64,000 bases of DNA. It comes from an uncultured Hyphomonas sp. (lineage in GTDB: Bacteria > Pseudomonadota > Alphaproteobacteria > Caulobacterales > Hyphomonadaceae). Positions within the stretch are counted from its first letter, which is position 1; each line of letters begins with the position of its first letter. This document shows positions 818 to 61,512 of the stretch, in pieces. The stretch is taken from positions 20,616-84,615 of the forward strand of contig CAYGKE010000004.1 in assembly GCA_964350465.1 (NCBI GenBank). The letters run 5' to 3'. Under the pieces are notes generated by a model that did no database searches, was not told the DNA's origin, and saw only the letters and a list, made by a program, of their open reading frames with translations. The translations under genes were made by a program, and so were the position numbers.

Positions 818-2056
818 TCAGGCTACCTTTTTCGCGCCGACGACATGCCAGGCAGCTTTTCGGCCAAAGTCTTCGCTGTCATCGTCAGCCGCGTCCGGGA
901 AGACGTCCTTGTCGACCACCGCGGCAACGCCGCCATGCATGATCTGATTGGCACCGAAGCCGGCGTCTTTCATCCAGGCGTCCATGTCGATTTCATGCAT
1001 CTTGGTCCAGAACGGCTCATTATTGTAGAAGGCATCCCAGTCGCGCATGGCCTGCTCAAATAGTGGCATGTCCTCGCTATATTGCGGCTGTTCGACATGC
1101 AGGACGATGCCGCCGGGTTTCAGAAGACGCTGCGTCTCGGCAAAGATTTTGGGCATCGACTTGTAGCTGGTCTCATGCAGGAACATGGTCGACTGCACCC
1201 AGTCAAAGCTTTCATCTTCGAAACAGGAAAGATCAGAAACATCATCCTGAATGAAGGTGACATTCTCGATCCCCATACTCTTGGCGCGAGCGAGCCCGTA
1301 GCGCAGCATAGGTGCCCCGGCATCAACGGCGATGACCTCGGCATCGGGGAAGGCGGCTGCAATGGGGAGGACATTGTGGCCAAGACCTGCCCCGATGTCG
1401 AGGATACGTTTAGGCTTGAAATCATCGCCAAAGGTCTGCTTGACCCATTCGGCAACAGCGACCCCACCGCCATCATTATAACGTCCGAGCATGCCGCCCG
1501 TTGTGGCGAAGATGCCCGCGTCGTAATTAGCGGGACCAGTAATGTCGCCCGGGACAAGTTCGGTATGATAGCTGCCCGGCATACAGTGATGGTCGATCGC
1601 TTCGGTTGAGCGTGGCTGTTTGAATTTCGGGTCCAGCACGAGGCGCTCGTCGCCTTCGGTAAGCTGTCGCACTTTTTCATTTAGCTCTTCGGCCTGACGC
1701 AGTGTGACCCAGCGACCAGCCTGCTGGCGGGTTTCCATCGTTGCCCGGCGCAGCGCCGACCACCACTGAAACATCGGATCTTTGGTCAGGGCTTTGCGAA
1801 CCTCATGACGGGATTTGAAATCGCGTTTGTTCTCTTTTTTGAAGGCAGGCTCTACGCGTGCCCCAAAGGCCTCGCCAACACCTGGCATGACTTTGGTCGA
1901 AAGATGCCGATTCATCTGTGCCAGAAAATTGAACCGTGCAATCTCGTCATGAGTTGTTTCGGGATAGACGCCATGGCGACCAACGACACGGTAATCCGGC
2001 GGTCCATCATACTCGATATCAGCTTTTTCTGGGACTGAGTGCGCGCTATCTGCCAT
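818..2056 (-). CDS. Class I SAM-dependent methyltransferase with long N-terminal extension
   Basis: Motif I RILDIGAGLG, VIAVDAG, FDWVQSTMFLHE, LLKPGG; upstream GGAG. Confidence 0.85.
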   Translation of the reverse strand: MADSAHSVPEKADIEYDGPPDYRVVGRHGVYPETTHDEIARFNFLAQMNRHLSTKVMPGVGEAFGARVEPAFKKENKRDFKSRHEVRKALTKDPMFQWWSALRRATMETRQQAGRWVTLRQAEELNEKVRQLTEGDERLVLDPKFKQPRSTEAIDHHCMPGSYHTELVPGDITGPANYDAGIFATTGGMLGRYNDGGGVAVAEWVKQTFGDDFKPKRILDIGAGLGHNVLPIAAAFPDAEVIAVDAGAPMLRYGLARAKSMGIENVTFIQDDVSDLSCFEDESFDWVQSTMFLHETSYKSMPKIFAETQRLLKPGGIVLHVEQPQYSEDMPLFEQAMRDWDAFYNNEPFWTKMHEIDMDAWMKDAGFGANQIMHGGVAAVVDKDVFPDAADDDSEDFGRKAAWHVVGAKKVA

Positions 2057-2132
2057 GTTTCATCTCCGTCTACCCTTAACAAAATGGCCGCGAAGCGCGA
2101 CTGTTTCAAGCAAGGGACTATTCAAGTTCGCT

Positions 2133-2148
2133 AAAAGATATATCATTT
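2133..2148 (+). promoter_or_regulatory. Operator A copy 1 (AAAAGATATATCATTT)
   Basis: 16-mer with palindromic GATATATC core in a divergent intergenic region; identical copies at 24171 and 29209. Confidence 0.75.
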
Positions 2149-2179
2149 GCAAAATATAGCCATAGGGGAGTTTACGGAT

Positions 2180-2494
2180 ATGAGCACCAAAATCGTCGCA
2201 CTGTTCAACTTGAAGCCAGGTATCAGCGTTTCAGACTATGAGGCCTGGGCCCAGAGCAAAGACATTCCGACCGTCAACGGATTGCAATCGGTTGATTCAT
2301 TTGAAGTCTATAAATCGGTTGGCCTGCTCGGTACCGACGACAAGCCGCCCTATGCCTATATCGAGACCATAGACGTCAATGACATGGAAAAGTTTGGCGG
2401 CGAGGTGTCGACTGACACCATGCAGTCCATTGCCGGCGAATTTCAGGCGATGGCCGATGACCTGGTCTTCATTCTGACGGACAAGCTGGGCTGA
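2180..2494 (+). CDS. HapK/REDY-like dimeric alpha+beta barrel protein
   Basis: IVALFNLKPGISVSDYEAWA...DIPTVNGL..VDSFEV, PYAYIE; ATG 2180 after GGGGAG preferred over the track's TTG 2147. Confidence 0.7.
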   Translation: MSTKIVALFNLKPGISVSDYEAWAQSKDIPTVNGLQSVDSFEVYKSVGLLGTDDKPPYAYIETIDVNDMEKFGGEVSTDTMQSIAGEFQAMADDLVFILTDKLG

Positions 2495-7419: not shown

Positions 7420-7941
7420 ATGGTCAAAACTGTAAAAGAGGTTGGTCCTAATCGCTACCGCGAGACCTTCGGGCGCTATTTCGAAGATTTCAAAGAAGGC
7501 GACATATACGAACACCGCCCCGGTAAGACGGTAACCGAGTATGACAATCACATGTTCACGTTAATGACGATGAACACACATCCGATGCATTTCGATGCCG
7601 AGTTCGCTGCCGCTAGTGAGTTCAAAAAGAACCTGGTCGTCTCGCCTTACACGCTGGCCTTGCTGATCGGCATGAGCGTCACCGATACATCCCAGAAAGC
7701 TATCGCCAATCTCGGTATGGACGAGGTGAAGTTCACCGCGCCTGTCTTTGCAGGGGATACGATCTATGGCGAGAGTGAAGTTCTCGGCAAACGCGAAAGC
7801 AAGAGCCGGCCAGGTCAAGGCATCGTGACCATCGTGACGCGCGGCTACAATCAGGACGGGGTGATGATCTGCACGTTCAAACGCAATATGCTGATCCCAT
7901 CAGCCGGTAACGCCGTCGAAGACAAGATAGACACATATTAG
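7420..7941 (+). CDS. MaoC-family (R)-specific enoyl-CoA hydratase, RipB/Ich-like
   Basis: GRYFEDF, DNHMFTLMTMNTHPMHFD, PVFAGDTIYGESEVL; ATG 7420 preferred over the track's 7309. Confidence 0.85.
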   Translation: MVKTVKEVGPNRYRETFGRYFEDFKEGDIYEHRPGKTVTEYDNHMFTLMTMNTHPMHFDAEFAAASEFKKNLVVSPYTLALLIGMSVTDTSQKAIANLGMDEVKFTAPVFAGDTIYGESEVLGKRESKSRPGQGIVTIVTRGYNQDGVMICTFKRNMLIPSAGNAVEDKIDTY

Positions 7942-7950
7942 GAGGCCATC

Positions 7951-9150
7951 ATGGCAGATAGTGCATACATGTCGGCAGAGGCCGCAGAAGAAGAAGCGAT
8001 CATGCTGGACGCCATCGACAAATGGCTCGAGCAGAAGGTTAAGCCGGTTGCGATGGAGCTGGAGCACGCCAACGAGTATCCGCATGCGCTGGTCGAGGAT
8101 ATGAAAGAGATGGGTCTGTTTGGCGCTCTGATCGATCCTGAATTCGGCGGCCTTGGCCTGACAGCATCGCTGTACGCCAAAATTGTCACGCGTATCTCCG
8201 AAGAGTGGATGAGCCTCACGGGTATCTTCAACTCGCATCTTATGATGGCGCAGATTGTTCAGCGTTTCGGGACGCAGAAACAGAAAGAACACTGGCTGCC
8301 GAAATTTGCGACCGGTGAAATTCGCGGCGGCCTCGCATTGACCGAACCCAATGCAGGGACCGACCTGCAAGCGCTGACCACCAAGGCAACTCGCGTGGGC
8401 GACAAATATGTTGTCGAAGGCGCCAAGACGTGGATTTCAAACGCGATTGAAGGCCATTGCGTTGCGTTGCTTTGCAAGACCGACACGAAAGCTGAACCGC
8501 GTTACAAAGGCATGTCGATCCTGATCACGCAGACCAAGATTCCTGAGACGCGCGAAGACCTGCCAGGTGTCAAGAATGGCAACAAGCTGGAGAAGCTTGG
8601 CTATAAGGGCATCGATAGCGGCGAGCTGATCTACGATAATTATGAATGCGATGCTGAGCTTTGCCTGGTCGGCGGCGAAGAAGGCAAGGGCTTCTTCATG
8701 GCGACCGGCGGCTTGGAGATTGGCCGGATCAATATTGCTGCGCGCTCGGTTGGGATTGCGCGCCGCGCGCTCAAGGAAAGTGTTGCCTATGCCCAGACGC
8801 GCAAGTCCATGGGCAAGCCGATCTGTGAGCATCAGGCGATCCAACTCAAGCTTGGTGAAATGGGGGCCAAGACCCGCGCCGCTGAACTACTCGTGGCAGA
8901 TGCGGCGCGCGCCTATGACACGGGCGAACGGATCGATATGGAGGCTGGCATGGCGAAGTATTTTGCCTCGGAGACCGCTGTCGAAGTCGCCACTGAAGCG
9001 ATGCGTATTCATGGCGGTTATGGCTACTCAAAGGAATATGTGATCGAGCGGCTCTACCGCGACGCCCCACTGATGTGCATTGGCGAAGGCACGAATGAGA
9101 TGCAGCGCATCATCATCTCGAAACAGCTGGTCAAGCGGAACCCGGTCTGA
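7951..9150 (+). CDS. Acyl-CoA dehydrogenase
   Basis: LTEPNAGTD, GAKTWISN, KLGYKG, RIHGGYGY, IGEGTNEMQR. Confidence 0.92.
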   Translation: MADSAYMSAEAAEEEAIMLDAIDKWLEQKVKPVAMELEHANEYPHALVEDMKEMGLFGALIDPEFGGLGLTASLYAKIVTRISEEWMSLTGIFNSHLMMAQIVQRFGTQKQKEHWLPKFATGEIRGGLALTEPNAGTDLQALTTKATRVGDKYVVEGAKTWISNAIEGHCVALLCKTDTKAEPRYKGMSILITQTKIPETREDLPGVKNGNKLEKLGYKGIDSGELIYDNYECDAELCLVGGEEGKGFFMATGGLEIGRINIAARSVGIARRALKESVAYAQTRKSMGKPICEHQAIQLKLGEMGAKTRAAELLVADAARAYDTGERIDMEAGMAKYFASETAVEVATEAMRIHGGYGYSKEYVIERLYRDAPLMCIGEGTNEMQRIIISKQLVKRNPV

Positions 9151-38047: not shown

Positions 38048-38461
38048 CTATGTATCCGCTGTCAGCACCGCGATCAGCTCAACCCATTCCAGAACGTCAT
38101 CACCGACGCCCTCGTCCTCCAGGAATGTAATAAAGGCTGGCAGTAGCGCCTCAACGCTGCCGCACTGGTCGGCAGCCGCTTTCAGCGCGGGCCAGGCATC
38201 CTGCTCGAAATCCTGTGCCAGATCCTCGAAATCCTCGATCATGCCCGGCACTTGCAACAGGGTTAGCGGTCCGGGATCATCATCCAGTTTTTCAGAGAAA
38301 TTCTTCAGCCGGTTGATCGTGCGATAATTGGCGATACTGAAATTGCTCAGGATGCGCTCGCTTTTCCATTCCACCCATTCCGGGGTGCAGGGCTCTGGGC
38401 CGGTCGCGCATGCCCCAAGGACTGCAAGTCCGGCGAGCGCGCCAAAACATCGCGTGATCAT
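38048..38461 (-). CDS. Hypothetical lipoprotein
   Basis: LGA-C lipobox; coupled to the upstream ORF. Confidence 0.65.
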   Translation of the reverse strand: MITRCFGALAGLAVLGACATGPEPCTPEWVEWKSERILSNFSIANYRTINRLKNFSEKLDDDPGPLTLLQVPGMIEDFEDLAQDFEQDAWPALKAAADQCGSVEALLPAFITFLEDEGVGDDVLEWVELIAVLTADT

Positions 38462-51516: not shown

Positions 51517-52332
51517 ATGACTGCAGCGCCAGAGGCGGCCGCGCCAAAAAAAGTGAACCCGAATGCGCCGACAGAGGAAACCGTCCTGTCGGTGCATCAC
51601 TATACTGACCGGCTGTTCAAGTTCCGCATCACACGCCCGACCAGTTTCCGCTTCCGCTCTGGCGAGTTCATCATGATCGGTCTGATGGGCGATAATGGCA
51701 AACCGCTGCTGCGCGCCTATTCGGTTGCCTCGCCGAACTGGGATGACACGCTTGAATTCTACTCGATCAAAGTGCCGGACGGCCCGCTGACCTCAAAGCT
51801 CCAACTGATCAAGGAAGGCGACAAGGTCCTGCTCGGCAAGAAGCCGGTCGGCACACTTGTCCATGACGCGCTTGTGCCGGGCAAACGGCTCTATTGCTTC
51901 TCGACCGGGACCGGCTTTGCGCCGTTCGCCAGCGTCATTCGTGACCCGGAAACCTATGACAAGTTTGACGAGGTCATCGTCACTCATACCTGCCGCGATG
52001 TTGCTGAGCTCGCCTATTCGAAAGAGGTGGTCGAGAGCTTTTTGAGCGATCCCGATATTGGCGAACTGGGCCGCGGCAAGCTTCGCCTCTACCAGACCTG
52101 CACGCGCGAAGCGTTCGACAAGGCCGGGCGTGTGACCGACCTGATCCGCTCCGGAAAACTGTTTGAGGATCTTGGCGTTCCGCGTCTCGATCCGGTAACG
52201 GACCGCGCGATGATTTGCGGCTCCATCGATATGACCAAGGAACTGAAAGGCCTGATGGAAGAACACGGCCTGAAAGAAGGCTCAAACGCTGAACCGGCCG
52301 ACTTCGTCATTGAACGCGCCTTTGTCGGCTAG
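51517..52332 (+). CDS. fpr: Ferredoxin-NADP+ reductase
   Basis: RAYSVAS, GPLTS, STGTGFAPF, MICGS, FVIERAFVG. Confidence 0.92.
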   Translation: MTAAPEAAAPKKVNPNAPTEETVLSVHHYTDRLFKFRITRPTSFRFRSGEFIMIGLMGDNGKPLLRAYSVASPNWDDTLEFYSIKVPDGPLTSKLQLIKEGDKVLLGKKPVGTLVHDALVPGKRLYCFSTGTGFAPFASVIRDPETYDKFDEVIVTHTCRDVAELAYSKEVVESFLSDPDIGELGRGKLRLYQTCTREAFDKAGRVTDLIRSGKLFEDLGVPRLDPVTDRAMICGSIDMTKELKGLMEEHGLKEGSNAEPADFVIERAFVG

Positions 52333-52356
52333 TTTTACAATCCTCAAACGCGTCAG

Positions 52357-52383
52357 TCATCCTTCGACTTCGCTCAGGATGAG
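52357..52383 (-). repeat. REP-like palindromic repeat, copy 1
   Basis: TCATCCTTCGACTTCGCTCAGGATGAG; terminal TCATCCT/AGGATGA stem. Confidence 0.9.
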
Positions 52384-52398
52384 CGTTATCCTCGCTTG

Positions 52399-52725
52399 AT
52401 GCAATTTTTCGTTTACATCCTTCGATGCGCTGATGGCGCATACTATGTCGGCAGTCATCGCGGGGATGATGTCATGGTCAGGGTTCATGATCACAATCAT
52501 GGAACAAACTCTAAGGCCTACACATACTCAAGGCGACCTGTTGAGTTGCTTTGGAGCGAGGCATTTGATGATCCACACGACATGGTCGCTGCTGAGCGTC
52601 GGCTCAAAGGTTGGAGCAGAGCAAAAAAAGAAGCTTTCATAAGTGGTGACATTGAGCGTTTGAAGCGCTCTCCAAATCCAGAACTGCGCCACCGGATTCC
52701 GCTAAGGGTTTGTATTACAAGCTGA
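52399..52725 (+). CDS. Small stand-alone GIY-YIG nuclease
   Basis: FVYILRCADGAYYVG, RVHDH, RRPVEL, ERRLKGWSRAKKEA; C-terminus possibly frameshifted. Confidence 0.88.
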   Translation: MQFFVYILRCADGAYYVGSHRGDDVMVRVHDHNHGTNSKAYTYSRRPVELLWSEAFDDPHDMVAAERRLKGWSRAKKEAFISGDIERLKRSPNPELRHRIPLRVCITS

Positions 52726-52744
52726 CAGGCCAGAAGAAACCGGA

Positions 52745-52771
52745 CTCATCCTGAGCGAAGTCGAAGGATGA
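52745..52771 (+). repeat. REP-like palindromic repeat, copy 2
   Basis: CTCATCCTGAGCGAAGTCGAAGGATGA, exact reverse complement of copy 1. Confidence 0.9.
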
Positions 52772-52856
52772 AGCGAACGACCGGACCCTTTGATCATACC
52801 AACCATTCCAAATCCTCAGATTGACACCGCATAGCGCGCAGCCTGATCTTGGGCAA

Positions 52857-53324
52857 ATGATCACTGTCCGGCCCTTCATCTCGTCCGACGCATCCGCTTT
52901 CCGCGAGCTCAACCTCGACTGGATCCGGCAATATTTTGAGATCGAGCCCGAAGACCAGGCCCAGCTCGATGACCCGCAGCGCCATATCCTGGACAAGGGC
53001 GGCCGTATCCTGATCGCTGATCATGATGGCGTTCCGGTCGGAACCGTCGCTCTGGTCAACGGCCACCAAGCCGGCACCGTCGAACTCATAAAGATGTCAA
53101 CACGATCAGATCTGCGCGGGCAGGGGATCGGCAAGGCGTTGATGATGGCCGCGCTCGAAACTGCGCGCGACATGGGCGCGTCCCGTATATGGCTGGAAAC
53201 CAGCACCAAACTGGACGCCGCCATCGCGCTCTACACAAAGTCGGGGTTTCGCGAGCTGAAGCCGGAAGAATGGGGCGATACGCCCTTCAGCCGCTGCAAT
53301 TGCCAGATGGTTTTGCAGCTATAA
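52857..53324 (+). CDS. GNAT family N-acetyltransferase
   Basis: ELIKM, RGQGIGKALM, AIALYTKSGF. Confidence 0.87.
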   Translation: MITVRPFISSDASAFRELNLDWIRQYFEIEPEDQAQLDDPQRHILDKGGRILIADHDGVPVGTVALVNGHQAGTVELIKMSTRSDLRGQGIGKALMMAALETARDMGASRIWLETSTKLDAAIALYTKSGFRELKPEEWGDTPFSRCNCQMVLQL

Positions 53325-53336
53325 ATTCAAAAGCCC

Positions 53337-53407
53337 TCATCCTGAGCAGAGCTGAAGGATGAGGGCTGAAGCAATACGAGATCATCCTTCGACGTCGCTC
53401 AGGATGA
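53337..53407. repeat. REP doublet (copies 3 and 4, inverted, 19-nt spacer)
   Basis: TCATCCTGAGCAGAGCTGAAGGATGA (53337-53362) and TCATCCTTCGACGTCGCTCAGGATGA (53382-53407), between convergent genes. Confidence 0.85.
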
Positions 53408-61434: not shown

Positions 61435-61512
61435 TCATCCTGAGCGAAGTCGAAGGATAAAGGGCCGTGCTTCCCAGACGCCCGCCTCACCCTTCGACTT
61501 CGCTCAGGATGA
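61435..61512. repeat. REP doublet (copies 5 and 6, inverted, 26-nt spacer)
   Basis: TCATCCTGAGCGAAGTCGAAGGATAA (61435-61460) and TCACCCTTCGACTTCGCTCAGGATGA (61487-61512). Confidence 0.88.

Follow-up and report, generated by a model that had tools for sequence, protein, structure and literature searches.

In the genome of an uncultured Hyphomonas sp., a stretch of 64,000 nucleotides (contig CAYGKE010000004.1, positions 20,616 to 84,615; hereafter the window) carries a small open reading frame (ORF) that is enclosed by two inverted copies of a repetitive extragenic palindrome (REP). We consider it likely, with some reserve, that this ORF encodes an Ssn-like single-domain GIY-YIG endonuclease of the COG2827/UPF0213/Slx1 branch, that the enclosing repeats are its cognate REP from the alphaproteobacterial CGTC/CCTC superfamily, and that nicking by the enzyme drives REP turnover. 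The pairing of nuclease gene and REP is specific, general across the homologs and far above the intergenic background. The REP-gene-REP unit is a discrete cassette, which is gained or lost whole and can occupy unrelated intergenic sites as well as invert in place. The basic idea, which a first-pass annotation of this DNA had reached from the sequence, was essentially published in 2025; what is new here is a distinct subfamily of both repeat and protein, a reversed orientation of the tagged repeat ends, and direct natural evidence of the cassette as a unit.

The association was followed in 80 homologous loci, taken from one-genome-per-species contigs, whose proteins are 45–69% identical to the window protein. 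These loci are mostly alphaproteobacterial (Hyphomonas, Henriciella, Caulobacter, Bradyrhizobium, Methylobacterium and Sphingomonas), with single loci from Flavobacteriales, Chloroflexia, Eremiobacterota and Acidovorax. When the 200 nt before each gene were compared with about 330 nt after it for the best ungapped inverted repeat, a strong flanking inverted repeat (score of at least 16) was found at 63 of the 80 loci, against 1 of 1263 shifted controls with the same geometry at the same loci. Under a structural definition of the REP (7-nt stem, GAG, 3–62 nt, YMGA, complementary stem), the density is 2.82 per kb next to the gene and 0.085 per kb elsewhere, and REPs lie in 77 of 131 gene-adjacent intergenic gaps (59%) as against 6 of 292 other gaps of similar length (2%; odds ratio 68, p = 5e-41). 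The repeat also varies together with the protein, as identity between proteins is 67% within a REP type and 57% between types, a difference reached in 0 of 2000 permutations; common host ancestry contributes to this signal. Both the enrichment of homologs for flanking REPs over background and the co-variation of REP sequence with protein clade had been put forward in the first-pass annotation as consequences of its idea, and both were borne out. The tagged ends point outward (+,-) in the majority of the loci (23) and face the gene (-,+) in 7, namely the window and its closest relatives, while some Hyphomonadaceae loci have a (+,-) REP doublet 5' of the gene.

In the window, the 26-nt REP core TCATCCTGAGCGAAGTCGAAGGATGA is present in five copies at no more than 3 mismatches, compared with 0.00 expected from 100 shuffles, and a sixth copy has 4 mismatches. 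The core positions are 52357(-), 52746(+), 53337(+), 53382(-), 61435(+) and 61487(-). The features of the window are the following.

52357–52383, minus strand: left flanking REP, an exact 27-nt arm with 0 mismatches to the core; its bottom strand reads cgCTCATCCTGAGCGAAGTCGAAGGATGA, with the tagged 5' end towards the gene
52399–52725, plus strand: GIY-YIG nuclease gene, single domain (Pfam PF01541, E=1.6e-13), with residues 1 to about 90, the catalytic core, intact
52667–52754, plus strand: C-terminal tail frameshift, a 1-nt deletion at about 52667–52669 relative to relatives (DNA alignment)
52745–52771, plus strand: right flanking REP, the exact arm ggaCTCATCCTGAGCGAAGTCGAAGGATGA, with the tagged 5' end towards the gene
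52333–52789, no strand: 457-nt segment without counterpart in run X5, made up of REP-gene-REP with 24 and 18 nt of flank
52857–53324, plus strand: GNAT acetyltransferase gene (Pfam Acetyltransf_1, E=5.7e-21), bracketed by REPs
53337–53362 (plus) and 53382–53407 (minus): REP doublet with outward tags, between GNAT and DUF481, which are convergent (-19.8 kcal/mol, z=-3.5)
61435–61460 (plus) and 61487–61512 (minus): REPIN-like REP doublet, forming one long hairpin (-31.8 kcal/mol, z=-6.75)

The two arms of the cassette are 27 nt each, 100% complementary and separated by 361 nt, in which the nuclease ORF is the sole ORF. It encodes 108 aa from the ATG at 52399 (an in-frame TTG is found at 52396), with 15 nt between the left REP and the ATG and 19 nt between the stop and the right REP. 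The cassette has a GC content of 0.49–0.50, compared with 0.58–0.59 in its 5' neighbour fpr, which encodes an FAD/NAD-binding ferredoxin-NADP reductase, and 0.58–0.61 in the GNAT acetyltransferase gene on its 3' side. Along the DNA, a rhodanese gene is followed by fpr, the cassette, the GNAT gene, the REP doublet, DUF481(-) and chorismate synthase(-). The coordinates and complementarity of the perfect 27-bp inverted REPs, the low GC relative to a neighbour and the insertion directly after fpr had all been described in the first-pass annotation and were confirmed, as were its four nuclease-free repeat copies nearby, which are arranged as two inverted doublets within 9.2 kb. The window sequence is reproduced, with no indel variants, in contigs from four biofilm-metagenome runs. 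A promoter and terminator scan beside the cassette gave no signal and no terminator-like T-tract, and an exact-protein look-up of the window nuclease (with both start codons) and of fpr returned no record.

An empty fpr-GNAT site, which the earlier annotation had proposed to look for in relatives, exists in a closely related strain, that of run X5. There, a contig of 918 nt (depth 20.5) with an fpr 97% identical to that of the window joins the fpr stop at 52332 to 52790 with only 'GA' between them, and both REPs are gone along with the gene. Depth is zero over 52436–52683 in this run, and the nuclease gene has no coverage at 85% identity or above. REP doublets are retained in X5 despite the lack of a close nuclease copy, among them a REP(-)-31 nt-REP(+) pair. 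Loss of the cassette by recombination between its own REPs was rejected, since inverted repeats invert and do not delete the DNA between them and since the empty allele is without both REPs. Homing into a pre-existing REP doublet at the fpr-GNAT site was likewise rejected because the empty X5 allele has no REP. In three more distant contigs (L086–L088), where the fpr protein is 86–90% identical, fpr is directly convergent with DUF481, and 7.8 kb hold no nuclease, GNAT(+) or REP.

The cassette is also found in another genomic context. In a contig of 1.58 Mb (L001), the homolog P0005, 78% identical to the window protein, lies between ribH and nusB with the REP of the window on either side, oriented as there, and has its stop codon inside the REP; the similarity of the two units is limited to the REP-to-REP interval. 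The flanks of the window cassette are common to none of the 80 other loci. Inversion in place is seen in the Bradyrhizobium group, where the flanking genes of L049 (4971–5278) and L029 (4981–5287) are syntenic and the REP-bounded cassette is inverted. No convincing target-site duplication was seen at either end of the 457-nt segment, and no conserved unit ends were seen beyond the REPs.

The REPs, both solitary and paired, greatly outnumber the nuclease cassette. A metagenome set was assembled from at least 120 contig stretches with the exact 26-mer, in which copies were then counted at up to 3 mismatches. Among the matches listed, 19 of 161 REP copies adjoin a GIY-YIG gene, 102 clearly have none beside them, and 40 are so close to a contig end (450 nt or less) that no gene can be seen. 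A GIY-YIG homolog is encoded by just 8 of the 120 listed stretches. The exact core is unchanged in these contigs (at least 120, L089–L208), which come from soil, freshwater, marine and engineered samples, and such conservation is unusually strong for a non-coding repeat.

The REP of the window is a CC(C/G)TC-tagged bulged hairpin of the form CTCATCCT-GAG...TCGA-AGGATGA. As single-stranded DNA (ssDNA), one copy has a 7-bp stem (TCATCCT/AGGATGA, with AT at positions 3–4) and a 12-nt loop. The flanking repeats are all members of one superfamily, in which the ends CC(C/G)TCATCCTGAG ... TCGAAGGATGA(GGG) are conserved and the middle is variable. In 129 gene-adjacent REPs, the tag consensus is C (54%) C (85%) C/G (51/37%) T C A T C C T G A G, and the window copies have tags of (C/G/A)CTC or GTTC; in many copies the tag is able to pair also with a 3' GAGGG. 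The stem varies among TCATCCT, TCACCCT, TCATGCT and TCATGGT with compensating 3' arms, and the loops of related loci reach about 60 nt (Bradyrhizobium). An Rfam search with the REP gave only a sub-threshold chance match, which sets it apart from the known RNA families. More REP doublets, in both orientations and with spacers of 14–32 nt, are present in runs X1–X7.

Two further observations concern individual sites. In runs X1–X5, a joint 52383->52745 marks another locus, at which REP(-) and REP(+) stand in the gene-like orientation on either side of 31 nt, a spacer that is unrelated to the nuclease gene. In the window, a lone half-site CATCCTGAGC is found at 38345–38354 on the minus strand, far from the other REPs, and may be a decayed REP copy or a chance match.

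The GIY-YIG domain (PF01541) is the only Pfam match of the window protein; a HUH Y1 transposase domain was not found by Pfam, and NCBIfam gave no family. In an alignment of 33 homologs, Y6, R28, H32 and E66 never vary and Y15/Y16 almost never do. The catalytic residues Y6, Y17 and E64, whose mutation removes the cleavage activity of the Neisseria nuclease SsnA, are conserved by motif position (Y6, Y15/Y16 and E66), a numbering that does not derive from a direct SsnA alignment. AlphaFold2 predicted one compact GIY-YIG domain with a disordered tail, with a confident fold for residues 1–90 (mean predicted local distance difference test score, pLDDT, 87; above 92 for residues 1–80 and 81 for residues 81–90). 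The best PDB fold matches in Foldseek were the UPF0213 structures 1zg2 and 1ywl, followed by Slx1, and sequence matches were obtained to the UPF0213 proteins BH0048 (E=1.8e-8) and EF2693 (E=7.2e-8). A profile search with the subfamily retrieved 2,941 clusters (50% identity) at E<=1e-10. The tail of the window copy differs from that of its kin. The 1-nt deletion near 52667–52669 sets it apart from all close relatives and recurs in contigs of four independent runs. Read in the +1 frame from 52671, the DNA encodes SKSRTAPPDSAKGLYYKLTGQKKPDSS up to a stop codon within the right REP, where the intact relatives also end; this frame brings back the conserved basic tail (SKSRTAPPD...KLTG.K.P.SS and stop), which the annotated frame does not have.

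The closest characterised relatives of this system are the Ssn enzymes, site-specific ssDNA nucleases for CGTC-type hairpin repeats that flank their genes, which have been studied in Neisseria and Wolbachia (Chenal et al., 2025, Nat Commun, PMC11893778). In N. meningitidis, SsnA (NMV_0044) is a 94-aa single-domain GIY-YIG protein (cd10448). Its binding to the NTS hairpin CGTCATTCCCGCGMAVGCGGGAATCYRG is restricted to ssDNA, its cut falls a few nucleotides upstream of the hairpin, and it reduces transformation by NTS-bearing DNA. The SRM repeat is located near 71% of Ssn homologs and on both sides of 42%. The bounds of the family used in our comparison were a single-domain protein of 150 aa or less, a BLASTP match to SsnA at E<1e-10 with at least 75% coverage, an SRM within 500 bp on both sides, and inverted hairpin repeats of 20–50 nt that recur in the genome. 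In the discussion of that study, NTS-ssnA-NTS was likened to an insertion sequence and compared with RAYT/REP and IS200-IS605, while cleavage was the only activity reported (PMC11893778). The statement of the first-pass annotation that these repeats had no known enzyme is hence outdated.

The window system shares with Ssn a single-domain GIY-YIG protein roughly 100 aa long, in which the catalytic Tyr/Tyr/Glu are kept, a gene between inverted hairpin repeats with a (C)GTCAT-like 5' tag (CC(C/G)TCAT here, CGTCAT in NTS), and a repeat that is dispersed in the genome, mainly intergenic, often in inverted pairs and on both sides of cargo genes. A canonical NTS-ssn-NTS unit was found in a viral contig of IMG/VR (L258, 7785–8165), where exact-consensus NTS copies stand on both sides of a 103-aa GIY-YIG ORF (7826–8137) and the unit is inserted between the portal and large-terminase genes, a position typical of selfish nuclease insertions. 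This unit has the same architecture as that of the window, and its protein, which served as a proxy for SsnA (CAX49033.1) in our comparisons, shows distant homology to that of the window (31% identity over 81 aa, which is 75% of the query; E=2e-9). The repeats differ, as that of the window has a 7-bp stem, a GAG...TCGA asymmetry and a 12-nt loop, whereas NTS has an 8-bp stem and a loop of 3–4 nt.

The CGTC-tagged REP superfamily, in which TGTC and CCTC tags also occur, is mainly alphaproteobacterial and takes in the Neisseria dRS3 and Rickettsia RPE repeats; its authors stressed that no transposase is associated with it (Di Nocera, De Gregorio and Rocco, 2013, BMC Genomics, PMC3733652). Published families have stems of 8–9 bp that start with AT and loops of 4–5 nt, apart from atypical loops in Bradyrhizobium (PMC3733652). 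The window REP resembles them in its CCTC tag variant, its alphaproteobacterial host and the predominance of intergenic inverted dimers, and differs in its shorter stem, its bulge and its 12-nt loop; Hyphomonadaceae were outside the 2013 survey (PMC3733652).

With the REP-associated tyrosine transposases (RAYTs) and their REP doublets (REPINs), the system has in common a single gene between inverted REPs, an excess of REPs, doublets that fold into long hairpins, and largely vertical inheritance with genus-level synteny. The tag is CCTC/CGTC here and GTAG there, and the enzyme is a GIY-YIG hydrolase instead of a HUH Y1 phosphotyrosine transposase of the IS200/IS605 superfamily. To our knowledge, GIY-YIG enzymes act hydrolytically, with no known covalent intermediate or strand transfer; RAYT-like cutting and rejoining therefore cannot be assumed, and covalent cut-and-paste of the RAYT type is unlikely. 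The UPF0213/YhbQ proteins (1zg2, 1ywl; cd10456) provide the best sequence and fold matches and are single-domain proteins of the same size. We know of no report of repeat-associated UPF0213 proteins, and a literature search on YhbQ with GIY-YIG found nothing. The nuclease domain of Slx1 is also among the best PDB folds; Slx1 itself also carries a RING domain, depends on Slx4 and cleaves branched double-stranded DNA. Homing endonucleases of the I-TevI type are likewise small, selfish-looking nuclease genes in intergenic DNA, but the window gene has no separate DNA-binding domain, intron or intein, and the empty X5 allele offers no REP doublet as a homing site.

By analogy with the Ssn enzymes of Neisseria and Wolbachia, the window protein would bind the REP hairpin in ssDNA (during replication or repair, or in incoming DNA) and would place its nick on the 5' side of the tagged REP end, a few nucleotides away. 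The predicted nick sites differ from those of the canonical unit because the tags face the gene here and not outward. More speculatively, nicks at REP hairpins, taken together with host repair, recombination and replication, could give rise to REP turnover, new copies and REP-bounded rearrangements. Mobilisation of REPs by the nuclease is, at this point, a hypothesis.

A bolder reading makes the REP-GIY-YIG-REP unit a mobile element of a new mechanistic class, in which a hydrolytic ssDNA nickase that recognises CGTC/CCTC-tagged hairpins moves itself, with the help of host replication and repair, and spreads the orphan CGTC REPs as a non-HUH counterpart of RAYT/REPIN; we think this possible but doubtful. 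Put as an autonomous transposon ('REPtron') with the nuclease as dedicated mobiliser of solitary and doublet REPs in trans, it is a minority expectation. It would account for the RAYT-like architecture with inverted REPs around the gene, for the inverted doublets, for REPs far in excess of the gene and for the presence of the unit at unrelated sites. The whole-unit presence or absence including both REPs, which inverted-repeat recombination does not explain, the canonical unit wedged between phage portal and terminase genes, and the lack of a transposase for CGTC REPs in the 2013 survey (Di Nocera et al., 2013; PMC3733652) also speak for it. On the other hand, the hydrolytic chemistry without strand transfer, the published record of cleavage only, the lack of a target-site duplication and of conserved ends beyond the REPs, the synteny inside genera, a single copy per locus set, the rarity on plasmids and the REP doublets that X5 keeps without a close gene copy all stand in its way. 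The proposal of the first-pass annotation that a GIY-YIG nuclease fills a RAYT-like role holds for the specific REP association, the cassette and the REP excess; the analogy had already been published, and a RAYT-like reaction cannot be presumed.

The main rival to the preferred reading of a cognate Ssn-like nuclease is a purely domesticated host function like that of Neisseria SsnA, in which the enzyme cuts REP-bearing ssDNA from transformation, conjugation or repair and modulates recombination, and the flanking REPs are a legacy or regulatory and play no role in REP spread. We regard it as improbable. It has a direct experimental precedent in Neisseria (PMC11893778) and fits the synteny and vertical inheritance in Bradyrhizobium, Sphingomonas and Pseudolabrys, as well as the REP-bracketed GNAT gene (90% identity vs 96–99% in its neighbours), which echoes the diversity of dRS3/NTS-adjacent genes, but it leaves unexplained both the inverted REPs around the gene in about 80% of lineages and the gain, loss and relocation of the whole unit. 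The nuclease might also be inactive on REPs and the REPs independent intergenic elements, such as terminators or RNA hairpins, that gathered by coincidence or insertion preference around an AT-richer acquired gene, a reading suggested by REPs between convergent genes and by the lower GC of the gene. This is strongly disfavoured and very improbable, given the occupancy of 59% vs 2% of gaps at the same loci, the inverted pairs at 63/80 vs 1/1263, a REP type that co-varies with protein clade, no terminator-like T-tract or Rfam family, and hairpin recognition proven experimentally in homologs (PMC11893778).

Several results weigh against the preferred reading of an Ssn-like nuclease with a cognate REP that drives REP turnover. 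The subfamily scores higher with the UPF0213 hidden Markov model, a small profile, than with that of canonical NTS-flanked Ssn (median 51.6 vs 41.2 bits), so that its membership of the Ssn clade in the strict sense is putative; we place it with the Ssn kind in a wider sense. None of the 6 window REPs fits the published SRM motif, which shows no enrichment around the 80 homologs (0.030 vs 0.023 per kb). The tags face the gene in the window lineage, while they face outward in the canonical unit and in the majority of loci, and the recognition and cleavage of REPs by this subfamily are proposed by analogy. A single REP hairpin is of marginal stability (about -6 to -9 kcal/mol, indistinguishable from shuffles), and in the window copy the frameshifted basic tail may mean that the enzyme is impaired or that the gene, with its core intact, is starting to decay. 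The locus is syntenic in Bradyrhizobium, Sphingomonas, Pseudolabrys and other groups, which the earlier annotation had named among the findings that would speak against its idea, and the subfamily was found on plasmids in only three records, all megaplasmids or chromids; distant homologs only are found in phages. Because of the synteny in genera and the rarity on plasmids, movement must be infrequent and inheritance mostly vertical. RAYTs are likewise single-copy and vertically inherited.

If the cognate-pair reading is true, the Ssn principle of a tiny nuclease with its own hairpin repeat would reach a large alphaproteobacterial subfamily, whose repeat in the window is missed by the published SRM search motif. 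The unexplained CGTC/CCTC REPs of Alphaproteobacteria would then be tied to a specific enzyme, and new specificities of ssDNA cutters, of the kind proposed as biotechnology tools, would become available. Should the mobile-element reading be true, it would answer the question posed in 2013 of what mobilises the CGTC REPs. The presence or absence, relocation and inversion of the cassette are natural substrates for telling the cutting of REP ssDNA from REP mobilisation.

Some homologous loci have features of their own. At L017, a doublet of NTS-like repeats (CGTCATCCCCGGGCTTGTCCCGGGGAYCCAT), which fits the published SRM motif, lies at about 820–960, with repeats that begin 535 and 643 nt after the gene start (about 140–250 nt beyond the stop). 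The gene there belongs to the same subfamily and has its own TCATCCTGAG-type REP flanks; hence two repeat types are present at one locus. One short contig (L080) carries two divergent nuclease copies beside ribH-nusB, at 1475–1723(-) and 2068–2316(+), both 57–60% identical to the query. In four loci of Sphingomonadaceae (L064, L069, L071 and L085; from about 5001), which are syntenic with each other, the nuclease frame stays open for about 1.06–1.14 kb beyond the GIY-YIG domain and through the downstream REP; a high-GC artefact or a fusion could explain this.

The GNAT gene of the window lies between two sets of REPs, the copy at 52746(+) and the doublet 53337(+)/53382(-). Its counterpart in X5 is 90% identical, whereas the neighbouring genes are 96–99% identical (fpr 97%, DUF481 99%). 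More distant relatives have no such gene where fpr meets DUF481, and it is lacking in L087 and L088; a GNAT gene in L086 was considered as its orthologue and rejected, being unrelated and located elsewhere. As cargo bounded by REPs and with an elevated divergence, the GNAT gene recalls the NTS-flanked genes of Neisseria, as a raised diversity of dRS3/NTS-adjacent genes is cited in Chenal et al. (2025; PMC11893778).

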